NCBI RefSeq assembly: GCF_056712565.1
Contig: NZ_JBWXXM010000003.1
DNA length: 64,000 bases
Direction: 5' to 3' (one strand)
From: a plasmid
Under the pieces are notes generated by a model. The model ran no database searches and was not told the DNA's origin. It saw only the letters and a program-made list of their open reading frames with translations. Positions 10,511 through 34,929 of the stretch are shown piece by piece; position 1 is the stretch's first letter, and each line of letters opens with the position of its first letter. The position numbers were made by a program, and so were the translations under genes.

Positions 10511-10689
10511 TTCAGTCATCTCCGAACATATTTTCAGCGTTTCTTCTGGTCTGGTCTTCACCGTCATTTCTCGACAGACTCTGCTCTGTAAGGGGAGTAC
10601 TGCAATCCACAGACGTATGGAGACCAGATTGTTTTTCCAGTAATTCAATCAATTTCTTTTCAACCGAAAAAGCAGGTAATGACTCCAAC

Positions 10690-11193
10690 TTATTGATAGT
10701 GTTTTATGTTCAGATAATGCCCGATGACTTTGTCATGCAGCTCCACCGATTTTGAGAACGACAGCGACTTCCGTCCCAGCCGTGCCAGGTGCTGCCTCAG
10801 ATTCAGGTTATGCCGCTCAATTCGCTGCGTATATCGCTTGCTGATTACGTGCAGCTTTCCCTTCAGGCGGGATTCATACAGCGGCCAGCCATCCGTCATC
10901 CATATCACCACGTCAAAGGGTGACAGCAGGCTCATAAGACGCCCCAGCGTCGCCATAGTGCGTTCACCGAATACGTGCGCAACAACCGTCTTCCGGAGAC
11001 TGTCATACGCGTAAAACAGCCAGCGCTGGCGCGATTTAGCCCCGACATAGCCCCACTGTTCGTCCATTTCAGCGCAGACAATCACATCACTGCCCGGCTG
11101 TATGCGCGAGGTTACCGACTGCGGCCTGAGTTTTTTAAGTGACGTAAAATCGTGTTGAGGCCAACGCCCATAATGCGGGCAGTTACCCGGCAT
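10690..11193 (-). CDS. insB: IS1 InsB
   Basis: 167 aa [64 protein letters not shown]... Confidence 0.95.
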
Positions 11194-11387
11194 CCAACGC
11201 CATTCATGGCCATATCAATGATTTTCTGGTGCGTACCGGGTTGAGAAGCGGTGTAAGTGAACTGCAGTTGCCATGTTTTACGGCAGTGAGAGCAGAGATA
11301 GCGCTGATGTCCGGCGGTGCTTTTGCCGTTACGCACCACCCCGTCAGTAGCTGAACAGGAGGGACAGCTGATAGAAACAGAAGCCAC
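11112..11387 (-). CDS. insA: IS1 InsA
   Basis: 91 aa [43 protein letters not shown]... Confidence 0.95.
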
Positions 11388-11649
11388 TGGAGCACCTCAA
11401 AAACACCATCATACACTAAATCAGTAAGTTGGCAGCATCACCGATCCCTTCATTTAGTGACTGCCCCTGGGTTTTTCATGCTCTCCTGCGTCCTAGAGAA
11501 CTTGCCAATAACCTACATTATTTTTGCTTTGCCATTACCAATCGTCCTGAACAAGTTCATTTTAAAGCCAAAGCGCTGCCCAACTTTTATCCTCAATACC
11601 ACATCGTCAGCAGGAAATAACCTAATCCCTGTGTTGGGATCTTATAATC

Positions 11650-16144: not shown

Positions 16145-16363
16145 ATGATGAAAGCTCACGTTTTTGTTATTTCTATGCTTACTGGCATTGTCGTCACCTA
16201 TGCCGTGTTACTTCTTGGTTGCTTGTTCATCGATAAAACGCTCCCCACTGTAGATGTTGTCATTCTGTCACTTGTCGTGGGGGCTTCTGCTCAGCAATTG
16301 TCGAGGGTATTAATGTCAATAAATAGAACCTTCCCTTATCTTGCATGTAGTCAAAGGATATAA
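16145..16363 (+). CDS. hypothetical small membrane protein (~72 aa) upstream of crcB
   Basis: MMKAHVFVISMLTGIVVTYAVLLLGCLFIDKTLPTVDVVILSLVVGASAQQL...; two predicted TM helices; start chosen inside track ORF 16091-16363. Confidence 0.3.
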   Translation: MMKAHVFVISMLTGIVVTYAVLLLGCLFIDKTLPTVDVVILSLVVGASAQQLSRVLMSINRTFPYLACSQRI

Positions 16364-16434
16364 ATTAACAATATCAGTCAAATGAGAACATATTCTGATA
16401 TTGTTACGATAAAAAATTATTTTATGAGGGGTAC

Positions 16435-16815
16435 ATGATTAAATCACTTTTTGCCGTCATTATCGGCGGTTCTGTTGGATGTACTCTGCGCTGGTTACTG
16501 TCCACACGCTTTAACAGTCTTTTTCCAAATCTACCTCCAGGTACACTGGTGGTGAACCTCCTTGCCGGGTTAATTATTGGTACTGCGTTGGCGTACTTTT
16601 TACGACAACCACACCTTGATCCTTTTTGGAAATTAATGATAACAACGGGACTTTGTGGAGGTCTGAGTACTTTCTCTACATTTTCTGTTGAAGTATTCGC
16701 ATTACTCCAGGCGGGAAATTATATATGGGCTTTGACGTCTGTACTTGTTCACGTCATTGGCTCCCTCATCATGACAGCTTTAGGCTTTTTTATCATAACC
16801 ATACTTTTCGCATGA
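16435..16815 (+). CDS. crcB: CrcB/FluC fluoride channel family protein
   Basis: 126 aa, four TM segments, motifs GGxxGxxxR and GxCGGLSTFSTFS characteristic of CrcB/Fluc. Confidence 0.85.
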   Translation: MIKSLFAVIIGGSVGCTLRWLLSTRFNSLFPNLPPGTLVVNLLAGLIIGTALAYFLRQPHLDPFWKLMITTGLCGGLSTFSTFSVEVFALLQAGNYIWALTSVLVHVIGSLIMTALGFFIITILFA

Positions 16816-16877
16816 GAATTCATTAACGTTACAGGTTTATCAACTAATGTGACGCTTAGGATAGAATTTCGCTCCAT

Positions 16878-16938
16878 GGTATGCGTTTGCAGTCATTACA
16901 GTCTCCATGACGACTGTAATGACTGCAAACGCATTACC
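16878..16938. repeat. long near-perfect inverted repeat (~26-bp arms, 7-nt spacer)
   Basis: GGTATGCGTTTGCAGTCATTACAGTC-TCCATGA-CGACTGTAATGACTGCAAACGCATTACC downstream of crcB. Confidence 0.7.
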
Positions 16939-17194
16939 TGACATATCAGTATAAACAATGAATTAACCTCTTGGCGTATTTTTTACATCACTGGCCCTCA
17001 CCCCCCAAAATTCTCTCTGAAAAATTGTTGCGGTTAACGTTGCCAATGTATCCACCCATTTCAGAAGACGATCTGGCATCCTGGTGGCATGCTGCGATGT
17101 GCTTCAGGTGAGTGCACTGGGCGGTCAGCACAGGCGGTTTCGACAGCGAAATTGCACAGGACGTTATGCCGGCTGTGAGTACAACATCATAGCC

Positions 17195-18388
17195 TTACTT
17201 GATTGTACGGTAATGCCAAATACATGCAGACACTATGGTAAATAATACAGCGGCAAATAATGCCGTCACAATCAGCGCGATTGAGACACCTGTTTTCGAC
17301 GCCAGTGGCACCAACAATGCGCACAGCCCATAGCCAAGTGTGTGACTGGCCGCAAGCCAGCCCGCGCCTGCGCCGTCGGCCAGCTTATCATTCAGTAAAA
17401 GTTGATAAGCGGGTGTTGCCAGAGCGGCCCCAAATGACAGCACTGCACAGCCCAGGTAAAACAACCATAGCTGTTCAGTGAGCATGATAGCCAGACCACT
17501 ACTCATCAACACCCCGGCACTCAGGAGCAGAGCCACTGGAGTCAGGCGCTGTGGACGGAGTACCACGAACTGCGCGATAAGCGCAGCTATTGCGGACAGC
17601 CCCAACAACCACGCCACCTGTTGGCTAATAGTGGTGGTATCAGTATCGAACTGGCGAGTAAGGGCTGGCGAAAGTCCAAGCTGCATCATGCTCATTGCCG
17701 CAGCCAGTAACATTGCGCAAAGCAGATAAGGCAGGCAATCCCGCTTCAGGCTGACGCTCTTGCGCTCCGGTGTGGGCTGTGGTGGTGTGCCGGGCAACCG
17801 CAGAAGCATCACCACAGCCCACACCGGAGCTGCCATCAGCATCCACACTGGCGCCAGAGGGTGAATGACCAACATTGCCGCCGCGCACAGCGGCCCGAAT
17901 AGCCTGCCGCAGCTCAGGCCGGAGCTGATGGTTGCCAGAGCGGCCATGCGATTCCCTTCTCCCGCTCTCTGCAATGCCCAGACCTGACAGGCTGGCACCA
18001 TTGCTGACACGGTCAGACCGTAGACGATCCGGGCGATGATTAATATTCCCAACCCCACCGCTGTTGTTACGGCACCGGTAGCCATCAGCACGCTTCCCAG
18101 CCCAAGCAGGGTAAAGCTTACGCCATATCCTCCCAGAGCCCACAGCACCACAGTCTTACTGCCAGTAAGGGAAATTTGCTTTCCCCACCATGGGGAAGAT
18201 GGCAGAAACAGCATTGAGCCCAGCATCAGCAGGGCAGCCCATACAGACAGACTCAGATTTGTCTGTATGACCAGAACAGGGAGTACAACCAGCAGACCGT
18301 TCTGTCCGATACCGAGAAGACCGGCACTGAACGCCAGTGGCCAGCAGGACAGGGTTTTTTGGGGCGTATCTTCGATCTTAGATGACAT
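17195..18388 (-). CDS. shiF: ShiF-like MFS transporter, divergent from aerobactin operon
   Basis: 397 aa polytopic membrane protein immediately upstream of and divergent from iucA. Confidence 0.75.
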   Translation of the reverse strand: MSSKIEDTPQKTLSCWPLAFSAGLLGIGQNGLLVVLPVLVIQTNLSLSVWAALLMLGSMLFLPSSPWWGKQISLTGSKTVVLWALGGYGVSFTLLGLGSVLMATGAVTTAVGLGILIIARIVYGLTVSAMVPACQVWALQRAGEGNRMAALATISSGLSCGRLFGPLCAAAMLVIHPLAPVWMLMAAPVWAVVMLLRLPGTPPQPTPERKSVSLKRDCLPYLLCAMLLAAAMSMMQLGLSPALTRQFDTDTTTISQQVAWLLGLSAIAALIAQFVVLRPQRLTPVALLLSAGVLMSSGLAIMLTEQLWLFYLGCAVLSFGAALATPAYQLLLNDKLADGAGAGWLAASHTLGYGLCALLVPLASKTGVSIALIVTALFAAVLFTIVSACIWHYRTIK

Positions 18389-18459
18389 TGTAATGTTTCA
18401 ACACCATGTATTAATTGTGTTTATTTGTAAAATTAATTTTTCTGACAATAACATTTCTC

Positions 18460-18500
18460 ATTGATAATGAGAATCATTATTGACATAATTGTTATTATTT
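18460..18500. promoter_or_regulatory. aerobactin (iucA) promoter with Fur boxes
   Basis: CATTGATAATGAGAATCATTATTGACATAATTGTTATTATTTTAC matches Fur consensus GATAATGATAATCATTATC; just upstream of iucA RBS AGGAG. Confidence 0.85.
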
Positions 18501-18523
18501 TACTGTGTAGGAGCTGTTTGATT

Positions 18524-20248
18524 ATGATCCTGCCCTCTGAAAAATCCGCCACAGATGTGGCTGCGCAGTGCTTCCTGAATGCCTTGATTCGTGAAACCAA
18601 AGACTGGCAACTGGCGGAATACCCGCCAGACGAATTGATTATCCCGCTGGACGAACAGAAGTCGCTCCATTTCAGAGTGGCTTATTTCTCCCCAACCCAG
18701 CATCACCGCTTTGCATTTCCTGCTCATCTGGTCACGGCATCAGGCAGTTATCCTGTCGACTTTACCACTCTCTCCCGGCTTATTATTGATAAGCTCCGGC
18801 ATCAACTTTTTCTGCCAGTTCCCCTCTGCGAAACTTTCCACCAACGCGTGCTGGAAAGCTACGCCCATACGCAACAGACAATTGATGCCCGCCATGACTG
18901 GGCCATCCTGCGTGAAAAAGCGTTGAATTTTGGCGAGGCTGAGCAGGCACTGCTGACAGGACACGCTTTCCACCCTGCACCTAAGTCTCATGAACCGTTT
19001 AACCGCCAGGAAGCTGAACGATACCTGCCTGACATGGCACCTCACTTCCCGCTGCGGTGGTTTTCGGTGGATAAAACGCAAATCGCTGGTGAAAGTCTGC
19101 ATCTTAACCTTCAACAGCGGTTGACGCGATTTGCCGCAGAAAATGCGCCCCAGTTACTCAACGAATTAAGTGACAATCAATGGCTGTTCCCGCTGCACCC
19201 GTGGCAGGGAGAATATCTTTTGCAGCAAGTGTGGTGCCAGGCACTTTTTGCTAAAGGACTTATCAGAGACTTAGGCGAGGCCGGCACGTCGTGGCTGCCG
19301 ACCACCTCTTCCCGCTCCCTCTACTGTGCTACCAGCCGCGATATGATCAAGTTCTCCCTGAGCGTTCGGCTGACCAACTCCGTCCGTACTCTGTCTGTGA
19401 AAGAGGTGGAGCGAGGAATGCGCCTGGCACGTCTGGCGCAAACCGACGGCTGGCAGATGCTACAGGCCCGCTTCCCTACTTTCCGGGTAATGCAGGAGGA
19501 CGGCTGGGCCGGGCTGCGCGATCTTAACGGCAACATCATGCAGGAAAGTTTGTTTTCCCTGCGTGAAAACCTGCTGCTGGAGCAGCCGCAAAGCCAGACC
19601 AACGTTCTGGTTTCCCTGACTCAGGCCGCACCGGATGGCGGTGATTCGCTGCTGGTTTCGGCGGTAAAACGCCTGAGCGATCGCCTCGGTATCACTGTGC
19701 AACAGGCCGCCCACGCATGGGTCGATGCTTACTGTCAGCAGGTGCTGAAGCCTCTGTTTACGGCTGAAGCGGATTACGGCCTGGTGCTGCTGGCGCATCA
19801 GCAAAATATTCTTGTGCAGATGCTTGGGGATCTGCCGGTCGGATTTATTTACCGTGACTGCCAGGGCAGCGCGTTTATGCCTCACGCGACAGAGTGGCTC
19901 GATACCATTGACGAGGCGCAGGCGGAAAATATTTTCACCCGTGAGCAGTTGCTGCGCTATTTCCCTTATTACCTGCTGGTTAACTCCACTTTTGCCGTAA
20001 CTGCTGCGCTGGGTGCTGCCGGGCTGGACAGCGAAGCGAATCTGATGGCTCGTGTACGAACATTGCTGGCTGAAGTGCGTGACCAGGTGACTCATAAAAC
20101 CTGTCTCAACTATGTTCTGGAAAGTCCGTACTGGAACGTAAAAGGTAACTTTTTCTGTTATCTGAACGATCATAACGAGAACACCATCGTTGACCCTTCG
20201 GTGATCTATTTTGATTTCGCTAACCCGCTGCAGGCTCAGGAGGTCTGA
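18524..20248 (+). CDS. iucA: IucA, aerobactin synthetase (NIS synthetase)
   Basis: Start MILPSEKSATDVAAQCFLNALIRETKDW inside track ORF 18461-20248, preceded by AGGAG; IucA/IucC family. Confidence 0.9.
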   Translation: MILPSEKSATDVAAQCFLNALIRETKDWQLAEYPPDELIIPLDEQKSLHFRVAYFSPTQHHRFAFPAHLVTASGSYPVDFTTLSRLIIDKLRHQLFLPVPLCETFHQRVLESYAHTQQTIDARHDWAILREKALNFGEAEQALLTGHAFHPAPKSHEPFNRQEAERYLPDMAPHFPLRWFSVDKTQIAGESLHLNLQQRLTRFAAENAPQLLNELSDNQWLFPLHPWQGEYLLQQVWCQALFAKGLIRDLGEAGTSWLPTTSSRSLYCATSRDMIKFSLSVRLTNSVRTLSVKEVERGMRLARLAQTDGWQMLQARFPTFRVMQEDGWAGLRDLNGNIMQESLFSLRENLLLEQPQSQTNVLVSLTQAAPDGGDSLLVSAVKRLSDRLGITVQQAAHAWVDAYCQQVLKPLFTAEADYGLVLLAHQQNILVQMLGDLPVGFIYRDCQGSAFMPHATEWLDTIDEAQAENIFTREQLLRYFPYYLLVNSTFAVTAALGAAGLDSEANLMARVRTLLAEVRDQVTHKTCLNYVLESPYWNVKGNFFCYLNDHNENTIVDPSVIYFDFANPLQAQEV

Positions 20249-21196
20249 ATGTCTGGGGCAAACATTGTTCACAGCGGATATGGACTGCGCTGTGAAAAAC
20301 TCGACAAGCCTCTGAATCTTGGCTGGGGGCTGGACAATAGCGCGGTGTTGCACTGGCCCGGGGAGCTGCCAACAGGGTGGCTGTGCGACGCGCTGGATCA
20401 GATATTTATCGCCGCACCACAACTTTCAGCAGTGGTTCTTCCCTGGTCCGAATGGTATGAGGAGCCACAGGCGCTGACGCTTTTCGGACAGGTACAAAGC
20501 GACATTATCCATCGTTCCGCTTTCTGGCAGTTACCGTTATGGCTGAGTTCTCCGGCAAACCGGGCCTCCGGTGAAATGGTTTTTGATGCAGAGCGTGAGA
20601 TTTATTTCCCGCAGCGCCCCCCCCGTCCGCAGGGTGAAGTTTATCGTCGTTACGATCCACGCATTCGCAGGATGCTGAGTTTCCGCATTGCCGATCCCGT
20701 TTCTGATGCAGAACGTTTCACTCGCTGGATGAACGATCCGCGCGTTGAGTATTTCTGGGAGCAAAGTGGCTCACTGGAGGTACAGATCGCCTATCTGGAA
20801 CGCCAGCTCACCAGTAAACATGCATTCCCGCTGATTGGTTGTTTCGACGATCGGCCGTTCAGTTATTTCGAAATCTACTGGGCGGCGGAAGACCGCATTG
20901 GTCGCCACTATTCGTGGCAGCCCTTTGACCGTGGCCTGCATCTGCTGGTTGGTGAACAGCAATGGCGCGGAGCCCACTATGTGCAAAGCTGGCTGCGCGG
21001 GGTGACACATTACCTGCTGCTGAATGAGCCACGTACGCAGCGCACAGTACTGGAGCCACGCATCGATAACCAGCGCCTGTTCCGCCATCTTGAGCCTGCG
21101 GGATACCGGACAATTAAAGAGTTCGACTTCCCACATAAACGCTCGCGCATGGTGATGGCGGATCGTCATCACTTCTTCACGGAGGTCGGTCTGTAA
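20249..21196 (+). CDS. iucB: IucB, N6-hydroxylysine acetyltransferase
   Basis: 315 aa between iucA and iucC; operon position and sequence. Confidence 0.9.
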   Translation: MSGANIVHSGYGLRCEKLDKPLNLGWGLDNSAVLHWPGELPTGWLCDALDQIFIAAPQLSAVVLPWSEWYEEPQALTLFGQVQSDIIHRSAFWQLPLWLSSPANRASGEMVFDAEREIYFPQRPPRPQGEVYRRYDPRIRRMLSFRIADPVSDAERFTRWMNDPRVEYFWEQSGSLEVQIAYLERQLTSKHAFPLIGCFDDRPFSYFEIYWAAEDRIGRHYSWQPFDRGLHLLVGEQQWRGAHYVQSWLRGVTHYLLLNEPRTQRTVLEPRIDNQRLFRHLEPAGYRTIKEFDFPHKRSRMVMADRHHFFTEVGL

Positions 21197-22938
21197 TGAA
21201 TCACAAAGACTGGGATTTGGTCAACCGCCGCCTGGTGGCAAAAATGTTGTCTGAGCTGGAGTATGAGCAGGTTTTCCACGCGGAATCTCAGGGCGATGAC
21301 CGCTACTGCATTAACCTGCCGGGAGCACAATGGCGCTTCATCGCTGAACGTGGTATCTGGGGCTGGCTCTGGATTGATGCTCAAACTCTGCGCTGCGCGG
21401 ACGAGCCAGTACTGGCTCAGACGCTGCTGATGCAGCTAAAGCAGGTACTGTCAATGAGCGATGCAACCGTTGCTGAGCATATGCAGGATTTGTATGCCAC
21501 GCTGCTGGGCGACCTGCAACTACTGAAAGCCCGTCGCGGGCTGAGCGCCAGTGACCTGATTAATCTTAATGCCGACCGCCTGCAATGCCTGCTGAGCGGT
21601 CATCCTAAATTCGTTTTTAATAAAGGTCGCCGTGGCTGGGGTAAAGAGGCGCTGGAACGATATGCGCCAGAGTATGCCAACACCTTCAGACTGCACTGGC
21701 TGGCGGTAAAACGTGAACATATGATCTGGCGCTGTGATAACGAGATGGATATTCATCAGTTGTTGACGGCCGCAATGGATCCGCAGGAGTTTGCCCGCTT
21801 CAGTCAGGTCTGGCAGGAAAACGGACTGGATCATAACTGGCTGCCGCTGCCGGTACATCCGTGGCAGTGGCAGCAAAAAATCGCTACCGACTTCATCGCT
21901 GATTTTGCCGAAGGCAGGATGGTGTCTCTCGGCGAGTTTGGCGACCAGTGGCTCGCCCAGCAGTCGCTGCGTACCCTGACCAACGCCAGTCGCCGGGGCG
22001 GGCTGGATATCAAGCTGCCGCTGACCATCTACAACACCTCATGCTACCGGGGGATCCCTGGCAGATACATCGCTGCCGGACCACTGGCTTCACGCTGGCT
22101 ACAACAGGTTTTTGCGACCGACGCCACCCTAGTGCAAAGCGGCGCAGTGATACTTGGTGAACCGGCTGCAGGCTATGTCTCCCATGAAGGCTATGCCGCG
22201 CTTGCCCGGGCTCCCTATCGCTACCAGGAAATGCTTGGTGTTATCTGGCGGGAGAATCCGTGCCGCTGGCTGAAACCGGATGAAAGTCCGGTTCTGATGG
22301 CAACACTGATGGAGTGCGACGAAAACAATCAGCCGCTGGCAGGCGCATATATAGACCGCTCCGGGCTGGACGCTGAAACCTGGCTTACGCAACTGTTCCG
22401 GGTGGTCGTGGTTCCTCTGTATCACCTGCTTTGCCGCTACGGTGTCGCGCTTATTGCACATGGACAAAATATAACTCTCGCCATGAAAGAGGGGGTTCCA
22501 CAGCGTGTTCTGCTGAAAGACTTCCAGGGCGATATGCGACTGGTGAAAGAAGAGTTCCCCGAAATGGACTCTTTGCCTCAGGAGGTTCGTGATGTTACAT
22601 CCCGCCTGAGTGCGGACTACTTAATCCATGATTTGCAGACGGGTCACTTCGTGACAGTACTGCGTTTTATTTCGCCACTGATGGTTCGTCTTGGCGTACC
22701 TGAAAGGCGATTTTATCAACTGCTGGCAGCAGTGTTGAGTGATTACATGAAAAAACATCCACAAATGTCAGAGCGTTTTGCGCTTTTCTCACTTTTCAGG
22801 CCACAAATCATTCGCGTGGTGCTGAACCCGGTAAAACTGACCTGGCCTGATCTGGATGGCGGCAGCCGCATGCTGCCGAATTACCTTGAGGATCTGCAAA
22901 ATCCGCTGTGGCTGGTAACTCAGGAATATGAATCATGA
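21196..22938 (+). CDS. iucC: IucC, aerobactin synthetase
   Basis: 580 aa IucA/IucC family paralog. Confidence 0.9.
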   Translation: MNHKDWDLVNRRLVAKMLSELEYEQVFHAESQGDDRYCINLPGAQWRFIAERGIWGWLWIDAQTLRCADEPVLAQTLLMQLKQVLSMSDATVAEHMQDLYATLLGDLQLLKARRGLSASDLINLNADRLQCLLSGHPKFVFNKGRRGWGKEALERYAPEYANTFRLHWLAVKREHMIWRCDNEMDIHQLLTAAMDPQEFARFSQVWQENGLDHNWLPLPVHPWQWQQKIATDFIADFAEGRMVSLGEFGDQWLAQQSLRTLTNASRRGGLDIKLPLTIYNTSCYRGIPGRYIAAGPLASRWLQQVFATDATLVQSGAVILGEPAAGYVSHEGYAALARAPYRYQEMLGVIWRENPCRWLKPDESPVLMATLMECDENNQPLAGAYIDRSGLDAETWLTQLFRVVVVPLYHLLCRYGVALIAHGQNITLAMKEGVPQRVLLKDFQGDMRLVKEEFPEMDSLPQEVRDVTSRLSADYLIHDLQTGHFVTVLRFISPLMVRLGVPERRFYQLLAAVLSDYMKKHPQMSERFALFSLFRPQIIRVVLNPVKLTWPDLDGGSRMLPNYLEDLQNPLWLVTQEYES

Positions 22939-24212
22939 AAAAAAGTGTCGATTTTATTGGTGTAGGGACAGGGCCATTTAATCTCAGCATTGCTGCGTTG
23001 TCACATCAGATCGAAGAACTGGACTGTCTCTTCTTTGATGAACATCCTCATTTTTCCTGGCATCCGGGTATGCTGGTACCGGATTGTCATATGCAGACCG
23101 TCTTTCTGAAAGATCTGGTCAGTGCTGTTGCACCTACAAATCCCTACAGTTTTGTTAACTATCTGGTGAAGCACAAAAAGTTCTATCGCTTCCTTACAAG
23201 CAGACTACGTACAGTATCCCGTGAAGAGTTTTCTGACTACCTCCGCTGGGCTGCTGAAGATATGAATAACCTGTATTTCAGTCATACCGTTGAAAACATT
23301 GATTTCGATAAAAAACGTCGATTGTTTCTGGTGCAAACCAGCCAGGGAGAATATTTTGCCCGCAATATCTGCCTTGGTACAGGAAAACAACCTTATTTAC
23401 CACCCTGTGTGAAGCATATGACACAATCCTGTTTCCATGCCAGTGAAATGAATCTTCGTCGGCCGGACCTTAGTGGAAAACGGATAACCGTGGTTGGTGG
23501 AGGACAGAGTGGTGCAGACCTGTTCCTTAATGCATTACGCGGGGAATGGGGAGAAGCGGCGGAAATAAACTGGGTCTCCCGGCGTAATAATTTTAACGCA
23601 CTGGATGAGGCTGCTTTTGCTGATGAGTATTTTACACCTGAATATATTTCAGGCTTCTCCGGACTGGAGGAAGATATTCGCCATCAGTTACTGGATGAGC
23701 AGAAAATGACATCGGATGGCATCACTGCCGATTCTTTACTGACCATTTATCGTGAGTTGTACCACCGTTTTGAAGTTCTGAGAAAACCAAGAAATATCCG
23801 TCTGCTACCCAGCCGCTCGGTAACAACTCTGGAAAGTAGTGGTCCTGGCTGGAAGTTGCTGATGGAGCATCATCTGGATCAGGGCAGGGAGAGCCTGGAA
23901 AGTGATGTGGTGATTTTCGCCACAGGTTACCGTTCTGCGTTGCCACAAATACTTCCCTCACTGATGCCCCTGATCACCATGCACGATAAGAACACCTTTA
24001 AAGTGCGTGATGACTTCACTCTGGAATGGAGTGGCCCGAAAGAGAACAACATCTTCGTGGTCAACGCCAGTATGCAAACCCATGGCATCGCCGAACCCCA
24101 GCTCAGCCTGATGGCATGGAGATCTGCACGTATTCTTAATCGCGTAATGGGACGTGATTTATTCGATCTCAGTATGCCGCCCGCCCTGATTCAGTGGCGC
24201 AGCGGCACCTAG
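22935..24212 (+). CDS. iucD: IucD, L-lysine N6-monooxygenase
   Basis: FAD-binding GxGxxN (IGVGTGPFNLS) and second dinucleotide motif VVGGGQSGAD; exact start not resolved. Confidence 0.9.
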   Translation: MKKSVDFIGVGTGPFNLSIAALSHQIEELDCLFFDEHPHFSWHPGMLVPDCHMQTVFLKDLVSAVAPTNPYSFVNYLVKHKKFYRFLTSRLRTVSREEFSDYLRWAAEDMNNLYFSHTVENIDFDKKRRLFLVQTSQGEYFARNICLGTGKQPYLPPCVKHMTQSCFHASEMNLRRPDLSGKRITVVGGGQSGADLFLNALRGEWGEAAEINWVSRRNNFNALDEAAFADEYFTPEYISGFSGLEEDIRHQLLDEQKMTSDGITADSLLTIYRELYHRFEVLRKPRNIRLLPSRSVTTLESSGPGWKLLMEHHLDQGRESLESDVVIFATGYRSALPQILPSLMPLITMHDKNTFKVRDDFTLEWSGPKENNIFVVNASMQTHGIAEPQLSLMAWRSARILNRVMGRDLFDLSMPPALIQWRSGT

Positions 24213-24293
24213 GGAAAACGCAGCCGGAGGCTGCTTCTTTAACTCGCTACACAGCATCTTTGGGCTGATTTTTTCCGCCCGTATGGAGGAATA

Positions 24294-26495
24294 ATGATGA
24301 TAAGCAAAAAGTATACGCTTTGGGCTCTCAACCCACTGCTTCTTACCATGATGGCGCCAGCAGTCGCTCAACAAACCGATGATGAAACGTTCGTGGTGTC
24401 TGCCAACCGCAGCAATCGCACCGTAGCGGAGATGGCGCAAACCACCTGGGTTATCGAAAACGCCGAACTGGAACAGCAGATTCAGGGCGGCAAAGAGCTT
24501 AAAGACGCACTGGCTCAGCTGATCCCTGGCCTTGACGTCAGCAGCCGGAGCCGCACCAACTACGGTATGAATGTGCGTGGCCGCCCGCTGGTCGTGCTGG
24601 TTGACGGCGTGCGTCTCAACTCTTCACGTACCGACAGCCGACAACTGGACTCTATAGATCCTTTTAATATCGACCATATTGAAGTGATCTCCGGTGCGAC
24701 GTCCCTGTACGGCGGCGGCAGTACCGGTGGCCTGATCAACATCGTGACCAAAAAAGGCCAGCCGGAAACCATGATGGAGTTTGAGGCTGGCACCAAAAGT
24801 GGCTTTAGCAGCAGTAAAGATCACGATGAACGCATTGCCGGAGCTGTCTCCGGCGGAAATGAGCATATCTCCGGACGTCTTTCCGTGGCATATCAGAAAT
24901 TTGGCGGCTGGTTTGACGGTAACGGCGATGCCACCTTGCTTGATAACACCCAGACCGGCCTGCAGTACTCCGATCGGCTGGACATCATGGGAACTGGTAC
25001 GCTGAACATCGATGAATCCCGGCAGCTTCAGTTGATCACACAGTACTATAAAAGCCAGGGCGACGACGATTACGGGCTTAATCTCGGGAAAGGCTTCTCT
25101 GCCATCAGAGGGACCAGCACGCCATTCGTCAGTAACGGGCTGAATTCCGACCGTATTCCCGGCACTGAGCGGCATTTGATCAGCCTGCAGTACTCTGACA
25201 GCGCTTTTCTGGGACAGGAGCTGGTCGGTCAGGTTTACTACCGCGATGAGTCGTTGCGATTCTACCCGTTCCCGACGGTAAATGCGAACAAACAGGTGAC
25301 GGCTTTCTCTTCGTCACAGCAGGACACCGACCAGTACGGCATGAAACTGACTCTGAACAGCAAACCGATGGACGGCTGGCAAATCACCTGGGGGCTGGAT
25401 GCTGATCATGAGCGCTTTACCTCCAACCAGATGTTCTTCGACCTGGCTCAGGCAAGCGCTTCCGGAGGGCTGAACAACAAGAAGATTTACACCACCGGGC
25501 GCTATCCGTCGTATGACATCACCAACCTGGCGGCCTTCCTGCAATCAGGCTATGACATCAATAATCTCTTTACCCTCAACGGTGGCGTACGCTATCAGTA
25601 CACTGAAAACAAGATTGATGATTTCATCGGCTACGCGCAGCAACGGCAGATTGCCGCCGGGAAGGCTACATCCGCCGACGCCATTCCTGGCGGCTCAGTC
25701 GATTACGACAACTTCCTGTTCAACGCCGGTCTGCTGATGCACATCACCGAACGCCAGCAGGCATGGCTCAACTTCTCCCAGGGCGTGGAGCTGCCGGACC
25801 CGGGTAAATACTATGGTCGCGGCATCTATGGTGCTGCAGTGAACGGCCATCTTCCTCTAACAAAGAGTGTGAACGTCAGCGACAGCAAGCTGGAAGGCGT
25901 GAAAGTCGATTCTTATGAGCTGGGCTGGCGCTTTACTGGCAATAATCTGCGTACCCAAATCGCGGCCTACTATTCGATTTCTGATAAGAGCGTGGTGGCG
26001 AATAAAGATCTGACCATCAGCGTGGTGGACGACAAACGCCGTATTTACGGCGTGGAAGGTGCGGTGGACTACCTGATTCCTGATACTGACTGGAGTACCG
26101 GAGTGAACTTCAACGTGCTGAAAACTGAGTCGAAAGTGAACGGTACCTGGCAGAAATACGATGTGAAGACAGCAAGCCCATCAAAAGCGACAGCCTACAT
26201 TGGCTGGGCACCGGACCCGTGGAGTCTGCGCGTGCAGAGCACCACCTCCTTTGACGTGAGCGACGCGCAGGGCTACAAGGTCGATGGCTATACCACCGCG
26301 GATCTGCTCGGCAGTTATCAGCTTCCGGTGGGTACACTCAGCTTCAGCATTGAAAACCTCTTCGACCGTGACTACACCACTGTCTGGGGGCAGCGTGCAC
26401 CACTGTACTACAGCCCGGGTTACGGCCCAGCGTCACTGTACGACTACAAAGGCAGGGGCCGAACCTTTGGTCTGAACTACTCTGTGCTGTTCTGA
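24294..26495 (+). CDS. iutA: IutA, TonB-dependent ferric aerobactin receptor
   Basis: 733 aa with signal peptide, TonB box region, C-terminal ...NYSVLF typical of TonB-dependent receptors. Confidence 0.9.
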   Translation: MMISKKYTLWALNPLLLTMMAPAVAQQTDDETFVVSANRSNRTVAEMAQTTWVIENAELEQQIQGGKELKDALAQLIPGLDVSSRSRTNYGMNVRGRPLVVLVDGVRLNSSRTDSRQLDSIDPFNIDHIEVISGATSLYGGGSTGGLINIVTKKGQPETMMEFEAGTKSGFSSSKDHDERIAGAVSGGNEHISGRLSVAYQKFGGWFDGNGDATLLDNTQTGLQYSDRLDIMGTGTLNIDESRQLQLITQYYKSQGDDDYGLNLGKGFSAIRGTSTPFVSNGLNSDRIPGTERHLISLQYSDSAFLGQELVGQVYYRDESLRFYPFPTVNANKQVTAFSSSQQDTDQYGMKLTLNSKPMDGWQITWGLDADHERFTSNQMFFDLAQASASGGLNNKKIYTTGRYPSYDITNLAAFLQSGYDINNLFTLNGGVRYQYTENKIDDFIGYAQQRQIAAGKATSADAIPGGSVDYDNFLFNAGLLMHITERQQAWLNFSQGVELPDPGKYYGRGIYGAAVNGHLPLTKSVNVSDSKLEGVKVDSYELGWRFTGNNLRTQIAAYYSISDKSVVANKDLTISVVDDKRRIYGVEGAVDYLIPDTDWSTGVNFNVLKTESKVNGTWQKYDVKTASPSKATAYIGWAPDPWSLRVQSTTSFDVSDAQGYKVDGYTTADLLGSYQLPVGTLSFSIENLFDRDYTTVWGQRAPLYYSPGYGPASLYDYKGRGRTFGLNYSVLF

Positions 26496-26564
26496 CCGGT
26501 ATTCCTTTACAACAAAGGTACGCTGATATCAACATGGCCGCTGACAGCCAAGTTGATATCATAT

Positions 26565-26632
26565 AATACACGACATAATCTGTAGTCAGGGAGGATAGAC
26601 TCTTTACTGACTACAGATTATGTCGTGTTCCG
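26565..26632. repeat. palindrome downstream of iutA resembling the RepFIB iteron-proximal palindrome
   Basis: ACACGACATAATCTGTAGTCAGGGAGGATAGACTCTTTACTGACTACAGATTATGTCGTGT; compare 7738-7785 CTGTAGTCAGTAAAGGAGCGCTCTTCACTGACTACAG. Confidence 0.6.
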
Positions 26633-27019
26633 TGCTCATTTCCTCAAAAAATACAAGAAAAGAATTAGTATTCTAACAAAAAGTGAAATAAATTGTATCA
26701 AACTCCCTCTTTTAATCCTGTTGAGTAAATCAGCTTTTGCAATAGGATTGAAAGAGTGTAAGTGGAATCTCTTCCGGATACTCGTTACCACCGTGGCTAG
26801 AATATCTACGGCTGCGGGCCAGTAATAGATTAAGTGATAACAGCTGTCTGGAAATGTAGGGGCGTATCCACTAATCATAATCATTGTGAGATAAATATTA
26901 CGGGGCATTTTATAATGAATAAAATATACTCTCTAAAATATTGTCATATTACCAATACCATGAAGGTGATGCTGCCAACTTACTGATTTAGTGTATGATG
27001 GTGTTTTTGAGGTGCTCCA

Positions 27020-27295
27020 GTGGCTTCTGTTTCTATCAGCTGTCCCTCCTGTTCAGCTACTGACGGGGTGGTGCGTAACGGCAAAAGCACCGCCGGACAT
27101 CAGCGCTATCTCTGCTCTCACTGCCGTAAAACATGGCAACTGCAGTTCACTTACACCGCTTCTCAACCCGGTACGCACCAGAAAATCATTGATATGGCCA
27201 TGAATGGCGTTGGATGCCGGGTAACTGCCCGCATTATGGGCGTTGGCCTCAACACGATTTTACGTCACTTAAAAAACTCAGGCCGCAGTCGGTAA
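27020..27295 (+). CDS. insA: IS1 InsA
   Basis: 91 aa identical to copy 1 InsA. Confidence 0.95.
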
Positions 27296-27717
27296 CCTCG
27301 CGCATACAGCCGGGCAGTGATGTGATTGTCTGCGCTGAAATGGACGAACAGTGGGGCTATGTCGGGGCTAAATCGCGCCAGCGCTGGCTGTTTTACGCGT
27401 ATGACAGTCTCCGGAAGACGGTTGTTGCGCACGTATTCGGTGAACGCACTATGGCGACGCTGGGGCGTCTTATGAGCCTGCTGTCACCCTTTGACGTGGT
27501 GATATGGATGACGGATGGCTGGCCGCTGTATGAATCCCGCCTGAAGGGAAAGCTGCACGTAATCAGCAAGCGATATACGCAGCGAATTGAGCGGCATAAC
27601 CTGAATCTGAGGCAGCACCTGGCACGGCTGGGACGGAAGTCGCTGTCGTTCTCAAAATCGGTGGAGCTGCATGACAAAGTCATCGGGCATTATCTGAACA
27701 TAAAACACTATCAATAA
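27214..27717 (+). CDS. insB: IS1 InsB
   Basis: 167 aa identical to copy 1 InsB. Confidence 0.95.
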
Positions 27718-27727
27718 GTTGGAGTCA

Positions 27728-28402
27728 TTACCGTGCACGGTAACGGGCCATATCAATGAGCAGTTCCTCTCCAATTTTATTTGCCCCTAGAGAGCGGCGA
27801 GTTTTCTTCACTTCAATGACAATCTTCTCTTTCTTCAGAAGAAAATCCTGTCTGGATGATGAACCTGCGAAGCTAGGTGAATTTTCTTCAGGTCTGACAT
27901 CATTAAAATGCAGCAGCAGAAGAGCATGAACAAGATCCTGTACATCATACTCGTCATTAATTTCAAGCGGCGTTCTGTCATTGTATCGTTGCTTTAATTG
28001 ACGACAAAAAGCTGGAAATTTATTGAGTATATTTATAATCAAATCCAGTTCGGCATGTTTTGTTGCTATAGTCGATGCCGTGCCGGAGTAAGTTAAATCG
28101 TCTCTGGCTGCATCAAAAATAGGTTTGTAATGTCTAACCAATCCCTGATAATTACTAGACCAAGCAATCCTTTGTGTATCATTAAAATCTTTGTAGTAAT
28201 CAGATTCCTTTCCATAACTGTCTTCAAGTAACTTTTTTGCTCTTGCAATCCAGTTATTACCTTTAGCCGAATCAATATATTCCTGGCTTCTGTGACTAAA
28301 TGCACTTGTTCCCATATATTTTGTCGACATGACAGAATTGTACTCTTGTTCAAGCACTTCAAATCTTTCAGCTAAGGTCTTCTTCGTCATAGCGCAATCC
28401 AA
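27728..28402 (-). CDS. hypothetical protein with PD-(D/E)xK-like motif; C-terminus and stop codon supplied by IS1 end (probably 3'-truncated)
   Basis: 224 aa; C-terminal region ...LLLLHFNDVRPEE...(25 aa)...KIVIEVKK fits hhhD...hhhExK pattern; stop TAA lies inside IS1 terminal GGTAATGA. Confidence 0.5.
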   Translation of the reverse strand: MDCAMTKKTLAERFEVLEQEYNSVMSTKYMGTSAFSHRSQEYIDSAKGNNWIARAKKLLEDSYGKESDYYKDFNDTQRIAWSSNYQGLVRHYKPIFDAARDDLTYSGTASTIATKHAELDLIINILNKFPAFCRQLKQRYNDRTPLEINDEYDVQDLVHALLLLHFNDVRPEENSPSFAGSSSRQDFLLKKEKIVIEVKKTRRSLGANKIGEELLIDMARYRAR

Positions 28403-28559
28403 ATTATATGCTAATAATACCTGTGAATTTTAATATTCTACCATATCTGGCTTTCTTCCGTTCACATTGGACATTCAGGTAATTTCGTCCAGTTCTGCTG
28501 GCTGTGCTGGAGCTAGCCTGGTATAATTTAACCAGCCATTTCAACAGCGGTGGTGTCTT

Positions 28560-28829: not shown

Positions 28830-29309
28830 CTACTGGCTTGCTGTGCCAAACTTTCCGTTGCAGATTTCCTCATTCACAATGGCCTGAAACATGGAAACAG
28901 AATTTCTAGCCTTATCCCTCAGTGCATTAATGAGTTCTGTGTCGTGTATTTTGTTGTAGAAAATGAAAGTAGAAACATCAAACTGGAGTTTAAATGCTGC
29001 TTTCCTTATGGCTAAACCTGACGTGATCGTTATCTCATTATGTATGCGAAGATAGGCAAGATAATCATCGTTATTTGCTTCACACTGCTCATATAAATAT
29101 TTTTGCATGAGAGATTGAGACAAGGCCAGAAATTCCACATATCGTTTGGTTTTTATTTCTTTATCTTTTAATCCCTGTACTGCCGCTTCTTTTTTTAATT
29201 CGTGCTTTTGTGTTAGCTTAAGAGTCAGCCACCCCCCTAAAATAGTCAGCAACGACCCCAAACCTATTTTTACGGCATTATCAGCCACATCCACCCACTC
29301 AGTCGCCAT
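28830..29309 (-). CDS. hypothetical protein (159 aa) with N-terminal TM segment
   Basis: AT-rich ORF, N-terminal hydrophobic helix IGLGSLLTILGGWLTL; divergent from 29427-29876. Confidence 0.45.
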   Translation of the reverse strand: MATEWVDVADNAVKIGLGSLLTILGGWLTLKLTQKHELKKEAAVQGLKDKEIKTKRYVEFLALSQSLMQKYLYEQCEANNDDYLAYLRIHNEITITSGLAIRKAAFKLQFDVSTFIFYNKIHDTELINALRDKARNSVSMFQAIVNEEICNGKFGTASQ

Positions 29310-29426: not shown

Positions 29427-29876
29427 ATGGTTAAATTTCCAGGTGAAGTTATGAGTTCGTCCGCTGCTGTAACCGTTATAACTGGTGTTCTTGTTTTTGT
29501 TGGTGGTCAGCTCATTGTAAAGAGCGCGATTGAACCTTATATAGAATTCAAGAAACAATTGGGAAAAATATCAAATCTGCTATTAGCTAACCAAGCTAAA
29601 TTAGCTAATCCTTGTGCTGTTGAAATGTCTGAGATCATCCATGAGTTGAAAGATGCCGCAGCTCAGTTAATGTCGAAGCATTCAGCTTTGCCTTTCTATA
29701 TCAAAAAATTCCATATCGGATTCCGCTTTGTTCCATCAACGCCTGAAATTATTAGTTCGGCGCAAAAATTGAATTTGATAGCATCAATACATGAAGGTAA
29801 AAGCAAGGAAAGTACATATGAGCACATAGCCGAGATTGGACGTATGCTCAAAATCCCAACCACCTATTCTCTTTAA
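29427..29876 (+). CDS. hypothetical protein (149 aa) with N-terminal TM segment
   Basis: AT-rich ORF, hydrophobic VTVITGVLVFVGGQLIV; followed by hairpin plus T-tract terminator at ~29926-29957. Confidence 0.45.
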   Translation: MVKFPGEVMSSSAAVTVITGVLVFVGGQLIVKSAIEPYIEFKKQLGKISNLLLANQAKLANPCAVEMSEIIHELKDAAAQLMSKHSALPFYIKKFHIGFRFVPSTPEIISSAQKLNLIASIHEGKSKESTYEHIAEIGRMLKIPTTYSL

Positions 29877-30049
29877 TCTTCACGCCGATCAGATTACATA
29901 ATCCACGCGCCACCTGGACATTCAGGTAAAAAAGTCCAACTGGTGAGGTTGGGCTTTTTGGCTTTCCGGTTCTGTTGGTGGCTATGACCGGAGAAAATTG
30001 CTCTACACCTAACGCTTACATTTTATTTACAGCGTTTGATATCTTCCTC

Positions 30050-30094
30050 GCCTTTAACGCCTTTAACGCCTTTAACGCCTTTAACGCCTTTAAG
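30050..30094. repeat. 9-bp tandem repeat (GCCTTTAAC)x5
   Basis: GCCTTTAACGCCTTTAACGCCTTTAACGCCTTTAACGCCTTTAAG read directly. Confidence 0.9.
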
Positions 30095-30501: not shown

Positions 30502-32004
30502 ATGAAGAAATTTTATCAATTTAGGGATGAACAGCGAAAGGAGCTTGAACAACATGATTTTTATAGTTTGATTTCTTCAGATTGTATAGCGTTGAAAGAT
30601 AAACTATTATTTGCTCCTGTTATGGCTCATTTCATAATGAACTTCAGAGACATGAATAAATGGGTTATCAGGTTTGATAACAATGATAATGAATATAAAT
30701 CTGTTATAAACGGTGGAACAATCGAGGATGAAACACATTCAAGATTGTTTCTGGAAGACTGGAGGAAACTATATATAGATGACAAACTTAACTGGAAAGC
30801 AAGTGATGTTATATACTGGTTGTTTATTAGTCGAGAAATGGAGTGTTTCCGAAAATTTGGTATTGATTTTATGAGACTTTGTGTAGATGATGGAGGAGAC
30901 CCAATACTTCGATATTCTCACTCCGAGTCAGGAGAAACTTGCGGTAATATATTCTTTTCAAGAATTAGTCCTATTGCTGATCAAGTTGCCAATCATTTGG
31001 GAATATCACTCCGTTATTTTGGAACATTTCACCTTAATCTTGAAAATGGACATGTATGGAAGTCAGAAGGTGTTTTTGAAAATATAGAGTTGTCACCAGA
31101 TTCTTATAAGAAAATGGCTACTCTATCAAAGAGAATGTTTGATATATTTGAAGGAATTCATGACTCTTTTTATAATTACCTGTCCAGTTATGTTCTTAAT
31201 GGAAGTCATCCGTCATTTTTTGAATCATTACCTGTAGGGAAAAATGTTGCACCTATATACCCTGAATTTGTGATAGAAAACAAAAGCCATAACGATGGTA
31301 GACATATTGAACATATAAACAATTACCTGGAAAAAATATCGAGTCATGAGTTCTTTAAATGGCTGGTTAACACCTCAATAGACCCTCAATTGAAATTGAA
31401 AAGTTTCATACCTCTTTGGATTGTTGATATTATGGGGTATAGAGATATTAATAAATATGTTTTTACATATGAACAGCCTGAATCAGAAAGTGAAAAGATT
31501 ATAAATGATTATGCATTACACTTGTCAGAGCATAGCCGTTTATTTTATCATGACTGGAAGTCACTTCAACTTGATGATATGTTACGTTGGAGTGCCAGTG
31601 ATACTCTTGAGTTTATTTTTCTTAATTCAGATATGGATATGCATAGAGAAAATATAGTTAAGTTTTCTTTGTTCGGATTAAAACACAGAGATCCTGTTAT
31701 CAGGTTCTGGTTTATGATGATACTGGAGTTAAGTGGAAAAGAATTTTTCTCTCATGTTGGAGATATAGCTTTACAGGTGGAAAGTAAATATAATATTTAT
31801 CTCCCATATTTATGTGGACGCCATGCAACAGAAAATGAGCATGAAGCATATAATAATATGTATGAGCATTTTATGGTAAAGGAACTTAGCCCTGAACAAA
31901 GTGATCTAATAATACAAATTACAGACATGGTTATGCGGTCATTATTGAATAATTTGGATATCTCATATCGATATGTAGTAAATAATTTATTGGCAGCTCG
32001 TTAG
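30502..32004 (+). CDS. hypothetical 500-aa protein with internal duplication, AT-rich
   Basis: ATG at 30502 with AGGAG RBS; internal repeats HSRLFLEDWRKLYIDDKLNWKASDVIYWLFISREMECF and HSRLFYHDWKSLQLDDMLRWSASDTLEFIFLNSDMDMH; terminator hairpin AAATCCCACTT-TTCA-GAGTGGGATTTGTTT at ~32040-32070. Confidence 0.6.
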   Translation: MKKFYQFRDEQRKELEQHDFYSLISSDCIALKDKLLFAPVMAHFIMNFRDMNKWVIRFDNNDNEYKSVINGGTIEDETHSRLFLEDWRKLYIDDKLNWKASDVIYWLFISREMECFRKFGIDFMRLCVDDGGDPILRYSHSESGETCGNIFFSRISPIADQVANHLGISLRYFGTFHLNLENGHVWKSEGVFENIELSPDSYKKMATLSKRMFDIFEGIHDSFYNYLSSYVLNGSHPSFFESLPVGKNVAPIYPEFVIENKSHNDGRHIEHINNYLEKISSHEFFKWLVNTSIDPQLKLKSFIPLWIVDIMGYRDINKYVFTYEQPESESEKIINDYALHLSEHSRLFYHDWKSLQLDDMLRWSASDTLEFIFLNSDMDMHRENIVKFSLFGLKHRDPVIRFWFMMILELSGKEFFSHVGDIALQVESKYNIYLPYLCGRHATENEHEAYNNMYEHFMVKELSPEQSDLIIQITDMVMRSLLNNLDISYRYVVNNLLAAR

Positions 32005-32789
32005 AAGAACAGCATTGGTATGACTCTGATGCTCCTTAAAATCCCACTTTTCAGAGTGGGATTTGTTTAATGCCCAGAACAGGGGGAATTTCCATTCATG
32101 CCCAAAAAATATTTTGATGTCCTCTCGCCAATTCTCGCGCTCAGTCCTTCCTGAAAAACCTCAGAATTCACGTAGCGCATCGCCGCTACTGCATCCATCA
32201 AAAAAAATGACAGCTTTTTTAATCATCTTGTGTTACTCAACTTACTGAAAAATGTGATTTATGAAAATGCCGCCGTCGGCATCAAGCAGTTGGCCAGCGC
32301 AACCGGCTGCATCGACCGCAACAAAAAAACTGAAAGAGAAAGCCCCTCAAATGAGGGAGAAAAAAAGGAAGTGCAGTCAACGAGAGGCGTAAAAAACCCG
32401 ACTGGTGAGGTCGGGTTTTAATACGGTTCCGGTTCTGAGTTGGTGGCTCTGACCGGAGGAAGTCACTCTACACCTAACGTTTACATTTTATGCACTCAGC
32501 CGCAGTATTGCAACTAACTGTGGTTAAGGCACCACATTTAGTTGTGTATCGTGGGTTTTATATACCTTATAATCATGAAGTTAGCCGTGTGGTGTGGCTT
32601 CTTCCTCTGCCCTTCCCGTTTATGCAGGTATGAACGATTTTAAAGTCCTGGCTGAACAAACAGGTGGTGCTGTGTTTAGTGCTCTGGCAGGAGGAAGTCA
32701 CTCTGCACCTAACAATGCGAGAGAACCGTTGTGACAGGCAGTGTAAGAGCAAGCAACGGTGATTTCCTCCAGTTTTACTGGAGAAACGG

Positions 32790-32885: not shown

Positions 32886-33707
32886 TGACAGCGGAAACGT
32901 AACTAAGGACAGGAAGTGAACCGCTTCCTGCCCTTTAACGTACTGTGATATTTTTCAAAAAAACTCACCAATATTCTCCTCGGCAGAAATGACATAACTC
33001 ACTGTAAAATAACAAATCATCTAAACGCCAGCTTTGTATTGAGCGCGTTGGCCAACGCCTTTATCAGCTGCGACCGCACCAGATAATTTGAATAAGATTT
33101 CCCGCATCACCTGGACATACAGGTTATTCTGTCCATACCTCATTAGTTACAACATTCACGCGTTCTGTTCCTTTATCCGGTGCCCTGTTCCAGTATATGT
33201 GCCCATATCCTGGGTTATTCAGGATAACCGCTTCCTTTTCGCCCTGTCCTGTCGTTCATATCCCCCTGGACAAAAATGCATTATCGGAAAAAATGTCCAA
33301 AATTTTTTTGGTGATCGGAATTTTTGTTGTCGGACGCACCTCTTCTTCAGGTCATAATTGCTGACACATCCCAAAAAACAGGAGCGGAGATTTAAAAATT
33401 GAGTCACTTACCCGCCAAAATTTTCCAGATTTCACGTAGCGTACCGTCGATACTGTATCCATCAACAAATGACTATTTTTTGAATGTGTCATTTCCTGTA
33501 ACCTACTGAAAAATATCAGTGAATGACAATATCGGCGACAGCATCGGAGCTGATAGCCAGTTTCCTGAATGCATATGGCCAGAACAGTAAATTTGAACCA
33601 GGTTCTCACGTCACCAGGCGACGTGTCTGGGAAACTGGTGAACAACAGGCACAGAAAAGCCCAACTTTATGGGGGTCAGTTCAGTGAGGTTGGGCTAAGA
33701 GAAACGA

Positions 33708-33803: not shown

Positions 33804-34028
33804 TGACAGCGGAAACGTAACTCAGGACAGGAAGTTCCAAATAGCTCCCAGCCAGCATATGTAATTTTCAAAGGGGCAGTTGTTAACTCTGTAATAACGC
33901 CATGTAAAGTATTCCTGCCCCCTCCATGATCCTCCATAGTATTTCTTGAGTTAATTTTCAAAAAGCTTCTGATGGTGATGCTGCCAACTTACTGATTTAG
34001 TGTATGATGGTGTTTTTGAGGTGCTCCA

Positions 34029-34304
34029 GTGGCTTCTGTTTCTATCAGCTGTCCCTCCTGTTCAGCTACTGACGGGGTGGTGCGTAACGACAAAAGCACC
34101 ACCGGACATCAGCGCTATCTCTGCTCTCACTGCCGTAAAACATGGCAACTGCAGTTCACTTACACCGCTTCTCAACCCGGTACGCACCAGAAAATCATTG
34201 ATATGGCCATGAATGGCGTTGGATGCCGGGCAACTGCCCGCATTATGGGCGTTGGCCTCAACACGATTTTACGTCACTTAAAAAACTCAGGCCGCAGTCG
34301 GTAA
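34029..34304 (+). CDS. insA: IS1 InsA
   Basis: 91 aa. Confidence 0.95.
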
Positions 34305-34726
34305 CCTCGCGCATACAGCCGGGCAGTGACGTCATCGTCTGCGCGGAAATGGACGAACAGTGGGGCTATGTCGGGGCTAAATCGCGCCAGCGCTGGCTGT
34401 TTTACGCGTATGACAGTCTCCGGAAGACGGTTGTTGCGCACGTATTCGGTGAACGCACTATGGCGACGCTGGGGCGTCTTATGAGCCTGCTGTCACCCTT
34501 TGACGTGGTGATATGGATGACGGATGGCTGGCCGCTGTATGAATCCCGCCTGAAGGGAAAGCTGCACGTAATCAGCAAGCGATATACGCAGCGAATTGAG
34601 CGGCATAACCTGAATCTGAGGCAGCACCTGGCACGGCTGGGACGGAAGTCGCTGTCGTTTTCAAAATCGGTGGAGCTGCATGACAAAGTCATCGGGCATT
34701 ATCTGAACATAAAACACTATCAATAA
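34223..34726 (+). CDS. insB: IS1 InsB
   Basis: 167 aa. Confidence 0.95.
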
Positions 34727-34929
34727 GTTGGAGTCATTACCGCCTTGACCATCAGATAGTTATTTTGGTGCTAGGGATACTGAGTGTGAACAGTTAGCGC
34801 GCGTCCTCGCCAGTTAGCTCGCTACGCTCGGTTACACGACGGCTACGAGTACTAGTGATAATTATTGACTGAGGTATGTGCTCTTCCTGTTTCCTTTTTT
34901 GATGTGTTGCTCTCATTTTAAACAACTTT

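Follow-up and report, generated by a model that had tools for sequence, protein, structure and literature searches.

On plasmid contig NZ_JBWXXM010000003.1 (assembly GCF_056712565.1), we analyzed a stretch of 64,000 nucleotides, hereafter the window, in which a minus-strand open reading frame (ORF) at 27728-28402 ends inside a copy of the insertion sequence IS1. The ORF is very likely the remnant of a single-gene nuclease carried by mobile elements, which lost its 3' end in an IS1-mediated event and is no longer functional. The loss amounts to the last 134 nt, or 44 native residues, with IS1 joined after nucleotide 658 of the 792-nt gene. The truncation is already known: RefSeq marks the locus as a pseudogene ('PD-(D/E)XK nuclease domain-containing protein; incomplete; missing C-terminus'), and it is an ordinary IS1-clipped gene on a ColV-type Escherichia coli virulence plasmid.

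The IS1 junction and the identity of the truncated gene

The junction and the truncation were observed directly and involve the following features.

26965..27732, plus strand: IS1 (IS1A-like), 768 bp, recognized by its terminal sequences, length and insA/insB ORFs
27733..28390, minus strand: native part of the nuclease pseudogene, codons 1-219 and the first base of codon 220 of a 263-codon gene, recognized by homology, PF18742 and RefSeq
27728..27732, minus strand: IS1-derived tail of the ORF, consisting of GG (giving a non-native Arg; His in intact homologs) and the TAA stop, from the junction reading and alignment with the closest relative (P0001)

By direct reading of the sequence, this IS1 starts with GGTGATGCTGCC and ends with GAGTCATTACC; its termini were also read as GGTGATGCTGCCAAC (start) and GTTGGAGTCATTACC (end). 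Matching or identical records annotate the copy as an IS1A-family transposase. The nuclease gene is cut short at the right end of this IS1, and the minus strand at the junction reads ...CGT TAC CGT GCA C/GG TAA TGA, where the slash marks the border between native DNA and IS1. The terminal Arg codon of the ORF is thus composed of the native C(27733) and GG from IS1, and the TAA stop (27730-27728) lies within the IS1 terminus GGTAATGA, as the original prediction, made from the letters of the window alone, had stated.

The start of the ORF was listed as TTG at 28402, which is probably unused because the homologs and RefSeq begin at ATG 28390 (MTKKTL...). With the ATG start, the ORF contains 219 native codons and one hybrid codon. 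The native part covers the helical N-terminal domain and, counted from its start, two thirds of the PF18742 PD-(D/E)xK domain, and the RefSeq pseudogene in plasmid pECOS88 has the same coordinates as this part. A scan upstream of the ORF on the minus strand found no convincing sigma-70 promoter.

From its sequence profile, the ORF is assigned to the PD-(D/E)xK, or restriction-endonuclease-like, fold that the original prediction had proposed. PF18742 (REase_DpnII-MboI) was its sole Pfam match (E = 3.1e-33, 114.9 bits), covering positions 3-106 of the 150-position model, with the end of the domain missing from the ORF; all listed homologs carry the same family. The PADLOC profile Aga_Helical-REase matched both the ORF (E = 4.2e-23) and the intact protein (E = 4e-29), and the match was confined to profile positions 212-362 of 378, which correspond to the nuclease domain. 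In NCBIfam there was no relevant match, the lone one scoring 16.5 bits against a cut-off of 350 and belonging to an unrelated family. Among approximately 5.8 billion proteins searched, 669 relatives were found, and because homologs reach E = 2.9e-139 we regard the ORF as a real gene remnant. The full-length homologs nearly all measure 261-265 aa, with greater lengths where the start had been called further upstream; of the shorter entries listed, most were labelled partial or came from short contigs. The closest relative (P0001) is 263 aa long and 99% identical to the ORF. In a fold search with the nuclease domain, the neighbours were CdiA-CT DNase toxins, FokI, N.BspD6I, Can2 and Shedu, with modest scores.

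Many RefSeq, nr and UniRef records of this family carry the product name 'malate dehydrogenase', and taken at face value this label would make the gene a metabolic enzyme gene. There is virtually no chance that it is one: no Ldh/MDH match was obtained in Pfam or NCBIfam, PF18742 was the only Pfam family, and these results refute the malate dehydrogenase identity. Newer records from the Prokaryotic Genome Annotation Pipeline (PGAP) have been renamed 'PD-(D/E)XK nuclease domain-containing protein'.

Loss of the C-terminal block

We compared the ORF with full-length homologs, as the original prediction had proposed, and found that the intact proteins carry 44 more C-terminal residues. The first 752 bases of an intact allele (L002) matched window positions 28484..27733 at 99.2% identity, and the match ended exactly at the IS1 end; over the native part alone (27733..28390 against L002:95-752) the DNA identity was likewise 99.2%. 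After ...MARYRA the intact protein continues with HPDCETLVCFVYDPEGWVTNPKGVIDDLEGKDTEGKTRVVIAQF, and the product of the window has a single Arg instead of these 44 residues. The suggestion that IS1 had inserted into the gene or exactly at its end therefore holds in its first part, since relatives of 261-265 aa continue past YRA, and fails in its second.

Conservation was judged on an alignment of 36 sequences. The residues H220, C223, L226, F229, Y231, D232, P233, N239, P240, G242, D246 and L247, all near-invariant in this alignment, are gone from the window copy. Together they form the block HPDC..L.CFVYDP.....NP.G...DL, which is the most uniformly conserved C-terminal block of the family and not a variable tail. 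For the intact protein, AlphaFold predicts (mean pLDDT, the predicted local distance difference test, 82.6) an N-terminal helical domain up to approximately residue 134, followed by the first part of the PD-(D/E)xK core, namely a helix at 147-159, strands at 165-167, 182-185 and 190-196, and a helix at 203-217. Beyond the break after residue 219, the model places the fourth core strand (β4, 225-231), a helix (240-250) and a further strand (β5, 256-261). The complete alpha-beta-beta-beta-alpha-beta core is thus present in the intact homolog, and the ORF of the window ends after the second core helix (203-217).

The inferred catalytic residues lie upstream of the break.

27845..27847, minus strand: codon for D182, the inferred catalytic motif-II Asp (SRQDFLL), from invariance and alignment with D298 of EcbAgaN
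27806..27814, minus strand: codons for E193-V194-K195, the (D/E)xK motif, from invariance and alignment with E309-V-K311 of EcbAgaN

The only solved structure found by sequence was that of EcbAgaN (PDB 23wq; phmmer E = 0.004), whose residues 256-337 align with residues 140-220 of the ORF. In this alignment D298, E309 and K311 of EcbAgaN pair with D182, E193 and K195. The substitutions D298A and E309A/K311A abolish EcbAgaN's Mn2+-dependent DNase activity as well as its killing of cells (Song et al. 2023, PMC10620215). D182, E193 and K195 were invariant throughout the alignment. D182 stands 11 residues before E193 at the start of the modelled strand 182-185, and E193-V194-K195 lies on strand 190-196, so that in the ORF strands beta2 and beta3 bear the D...(D/E)xK motif. 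Judged from sequence, the truncated product retains the predicted catalytic triad D182, E193 and K195. The E-x-K in KIVIEVKK that the original prediction had noticed is accordingly a real motif, with E193 and K195 aligned to the essential E309 and K311 of EcbAgaN. The prediction erred in taking LLLLHFNDV for a strand ending in the catalytic Asp: this segment is the C-terminus of helix 147-159 in the AlphaFold model, and the canonical motif-II Asp is not its D164, a residue that is invariant in the family and may play a supporting part. Metal-dependent nuclease activity has been demonstrated only in the distant relative EcbAgaN.

The retention of D182, E193 and K195, together with the helix-strand-strand-strand-helix part of the domain, raises the possibility that the truncated protein is still an active nuclease, perhaps a deregulated toxin or defence effector from which an autoinhibitory or regulatory tail has been removed. 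The ORF is also open and 99-100% identical in 59 genomes. We consider this very improbable. The lost block is highly conserved and contributes two of the predicted strands, one being the fourth of the canonical core, and recent common ancestry of the plasmids accounts for the high identity. Moreover, sister plasmids have deleted the gene further, to 404 and 227 nt, with the catalytic residues gone, which argues for neutral decay and not for a maintained function. Because the core strand β4, a helix, β5 and about a dozen near-invariant residues have been removed, the truncated product is probably inactive as a nuclease and most likely can neither fold nor act as one. We infer that nuclease activity has probably been lost from the remnant. 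The inactivation by IS1 that the original prediction had offered as one outcome is borne out by the core elements and conserved residues cut off; its other outcome, altered regulation, is unlikely in view of the same losses and of the still shorter remnants on sister plasmids.

Origin of the junction and nested remnants

Three IS1 copies are present in the window: the copy at the nuclease gene, a third at 33974-34741 that is approximately 98.7% identical, and the following inverted copy.

10675..11442, minus strand: second IS1, inverted, identical at 768 of 768 positions to the copy at 26965 by sequence comparison

The two identical inverted copies (10675-11442 and 26965-27732) bracket the segment sitABCD...iucABCD-iutA like a composite element. 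On the far side of the IS1-nuclease joint lies the iutA downstream region in the window and sitA in pECOS88. Because the same joint borders iutA in one plasmid and sitA in the other, the sit-iuc-iutA segment between the IS1 copies is flipped relative to pECOS88. Just downstream of iutA we also noted two inverted repeats, a perfect one of 22 nt whose arms are 17 nt apart (26568-26628) and a second one of 15 nt (26524-26561), which could be terminators or what is left of an element's end.

The flanks of the IS1 at 26965-27732 are TACCATGAA and GTGCACGGT, which differ and thus contain no 9-bp target-site duplication. Comparing the three IS1 copies in every pairing, and allowing for the patterns that inversion would leave, gave no such duplication either. 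The missing 3' end (134 nt/44 aa) had no match in the 64-kb window, either by tblastn with the C-terminal 48 residues of the closest relative, which include the missing 44, or by blastn with the downstream DNA. These results bear on a simple insertion, in which IS1 would have split the gene, leaving its 3' part just across the element and allowing precise excision to restore it. IS1 commonly inserts into genes, and the description in the original prediction permits this reading. We nevertheless regard its probability as negligible, because the left flank of IS1 is the region downstream of iutA, the 3' part is unmatched anywhere in the window, the 9-bp flanks differ in every pairing, and pECOS88 has sitA and not iutA beyond the same joint. 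A gene split by simple IS1 insertion was rejected for the window on the absence of the 3' end.

The absence of a 9-bp target duplication indicates a deletion or rearrangement associated with IS1 rather than its simple insertion. The most plausible origin that we infer for the joint is an IS1-associated deletion or recombination, with an IS1-IS1 inversion afterwards. In an ancestor of the ColV-type plasmid, an IS1-mediated adjacent deletion or IS1-IS1 recombination would have set the right end of IS1 after nucleotide 658 of 792, and the same event would have removed the last 134 nt of the gene. Translation would then read one hybrid codon into IS1 and stop at the in-frame TAA, and the truncated gene would be decaying as a passenger at one border of the sit/aerobactin cargo region, which IS1 flanks. 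In pColV-K30, too, IS1 flanks the aerobactin operon. The window resembles the IS1 rearrangements known at the aerobactin/sit cargo of ColV plasmids, in that IS1 brackets sit-iuc-iutA, the segment is inverted between plasmids, and nested deletions share one IS1 end; we saw no unusual difference from them, and the arrangement is expected IS1 behaviour.

The distribution of the junction and of the gene was counted in 5,426 complete E. coli genomes. An identical 120-bp junction was present in 59 of them, and the carriers listed were all large plasmids of the ColV/ColBM type, such as pECOS88. The APEC O1 plasmid has the same remnant region. Some part of the gene was found in 306 genomes and its 3' end in only 91. 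Copies with the 3' end were always plasmid-borne, on plasmids of 20-100 kb among those listed, one of which was typed as IncX4 and conjugative.

Two shorter remnants were found on ColV-type plasmids. In one (L004), nucleotides 1-404 stand against the same IS1/iutA, which equals the window arrangement with 27733-27986 (254 bp more) deleted and is a typical IS1-adjacent deletion. In the other (L005), nucleotides 1-227 are joined to a fragment of eno (enolase) next to sitDCBA, an arrangement equal to that of the window without approximately 15816-28163. This form is consistent with a deletion of approximately 12.3 kb that took IS1 and the aerobactin operon from a window-like arrangement. In L005 and in L012 (NZ_CP019247.1 92434-92789), the 227-nt remnant overlaps the 132-bp enolase fragment by 5 bp, and this configuration occurs on many ColV-type plasmids. 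The 658-, 404- and 227-nt forms fit a nested series from one original event, which points to neutral decay and not to a maintained new function.

Repeated erosion of the gene on ColV plasmids could also mean that an intact nuclease is selected against in that plasmid or host background, for example owing to self-toxicity or because it is incompatible with co-resident elements. That the 3' end occurs in just 91 of the 306 gene-bearing genomes, on other, smaller plasmids among those listed, and that three truncation end-points occur on ColV-type plasmids while the upstream 159-aa, 149-aa and 500-aa genes are intact, would agree with such selection. However, the three forms fit one nested series, so that the independent inactivations may number only one, and adjacent deletions are in any case to be expected for a gene that borders an IS1 end. 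We therefore consider selection quite unlikely and neutral loss the preferred explanation.

The intact family and the surrounding genes

The intact protein (263 aa; for example WP_000163250.1 of IncX4 plasmids) consists of the N-terminal helical domain and a C-terminal DpnII/MboI-type PD-(D/E)xK domain. WP_000163250.1, itself a PF18742 protein, is 99% identical to the ORF over residues 1-219 and has the same D182, E193 and K195, the same domains and the same upstream 159-aa neighbour. It differs from the window copy in the last 44 residues (β4, helix and β5), in place of which the window copy ends in an Arg completed by IS1 and a stop. Carriers of the intact family are small plasmids, IncX4 among them, as well as integrative islands, P4-like elements and prophages. 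Distant homologs were located in an integrase-flanked island in Pectobacterium, beside P4-like replication and terminase genes in Serratia, and within a string of prophage-like genes in Paenibacillus. Their neighbourhoods differ completely, and no conserved partner gene (methyltransferase, Argonaute or immunity protein) was found in them.

Three known kinds of system were considered for the intact family. The bAgaN nuclease of the BPAN long-B Argonaute systems (EcbAgaN) has a homologous nuclease domain, with the D-EVK motif aligned residue for residue, and shares the general layout of a helical domain plus a restriction endonuclease (REase). Unlike bAgaN, the present protein is approximately 120 aa shorter and matches in the nuclease part alone, and no Argonaute gene is adjacent in the window, on IncX4 plasmids or beside the distant homologs. 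A role as a BPAN component was rejected, since there is no adjacent long-B Argonaute and the match to the bAgaN profile is not full-length. In the REase variants of Detocs, PF18742 also serves as an immune effector module (Rousset et al. 2023 preprint, 10.1101/2023.01.24.525353, legend to Fig. S8); Detocs is a three-gene, two-component-like system. The Detocs partner genes are not present at the window locus. No methyltransferase was annotated, and no such Pfam family was listed, among the neighbours in the window-equivalent records and seven other contexts. Membership of Detocs and of the DpnII/MboI-like type II restriction-modification systems was likewise rejected. The intact family thus belongs to neither BPAN, Detocs nor type II restriction-modification, because the defining partner genes are absent.

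Because PF18742-type domains act as immune effectors elsewhere, in bAgaN of BPAN and in the REase variants of Detocs, the intact protein is most likely, by analogy, a DNA-degrading effector in conflict between mobile elements, with the helical N-terminal domain as a putative sensor or regulator. A more far-reaching proposal is that the 263-aa family is an uncharacterised single-gene nuclease of defence or plasmid competition, whose loss on ColV plasmids was selected because it is harmful there. We consider this rather unlikely; were it true, the remnant would mark a conflict between plasmid-borne immunity and virulence-plasmid cargo.

One neighbour has been linked to the nuclease gene.

28830..29309, minus strand: 159-aa hypothetical gene (WP_000190053.1), directly upstream of the nuclease gene, from protein comparison

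A protein 100% identical to WP_000190053.1 is encoded upstream of both the intact gene, in L003 and L011, and the remnants, in L001, L004 and L005. Since the two genes adjoin on both IncX4 and ColV plasmids, the nuclease and the 159-aa gene appear to have moved together. The 159-aa gene accompanies the nuclease gene only in E. coli plasmid contexts (ColV and IncX4); it is absent beside the distant nuclease homologs examined and had no match in PADLOC or PHROGs. None of the neighbouring 64-, 159-, 149- and 500-aa ORFs had a PADLOC match.

The 149-aa ORF (29427-29876, plus strand) matched phrog_7512, a family of unknown function (E = 3.8e-60), and is therefore a member of a phage-associated family on a plasmid. 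The 500-aa hypothetical protein (30502-32004, plus strand) consists of two homologous halves (residues 1-253 and 254-500; 32% identity, E = 3e-25), is conserved on ColV plasmids and had no match in PADLOC or PHROGs. A perfect five-copy tandem repeat of the 9-bp unit CGCCTTTAA lies between these two ORFs at 30049-30093. The annotation of pECOS88 places two DinQ-like type I toxin genes (dqlB) in the region matching window positions 33099-33441 and 32164-32220. This region shares 72-88% identical non-coding DNA with the flanks of the IncX4 module of 159-aa and nuclease genes (4695-5039 in L003), the identity being 88.5% in L003, upstream of the 159-aa gene, and 72-80% in L002, downstream of the nuclease gene. 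On sequence similarity, this identity hints that the whole block may derive from a related backbone.

The biological weight of the remnant is small, as it adds another pseudogene clipped by IS1 to a class of virulence plasmids that has been studied well. The analysis is of use in correcting the widespread 'malate dehydrogenase' mislabel, and the exact IS1-nuclease joint and its 404-nt and 227-nt derivatives could mark lineages of ColV/ColBM plasmid rearrangements. It also points to a stand-alone relative of bAgaN on IncX4 plasmids as a candidate defence gene, which is the one mildly novel thread of the work.
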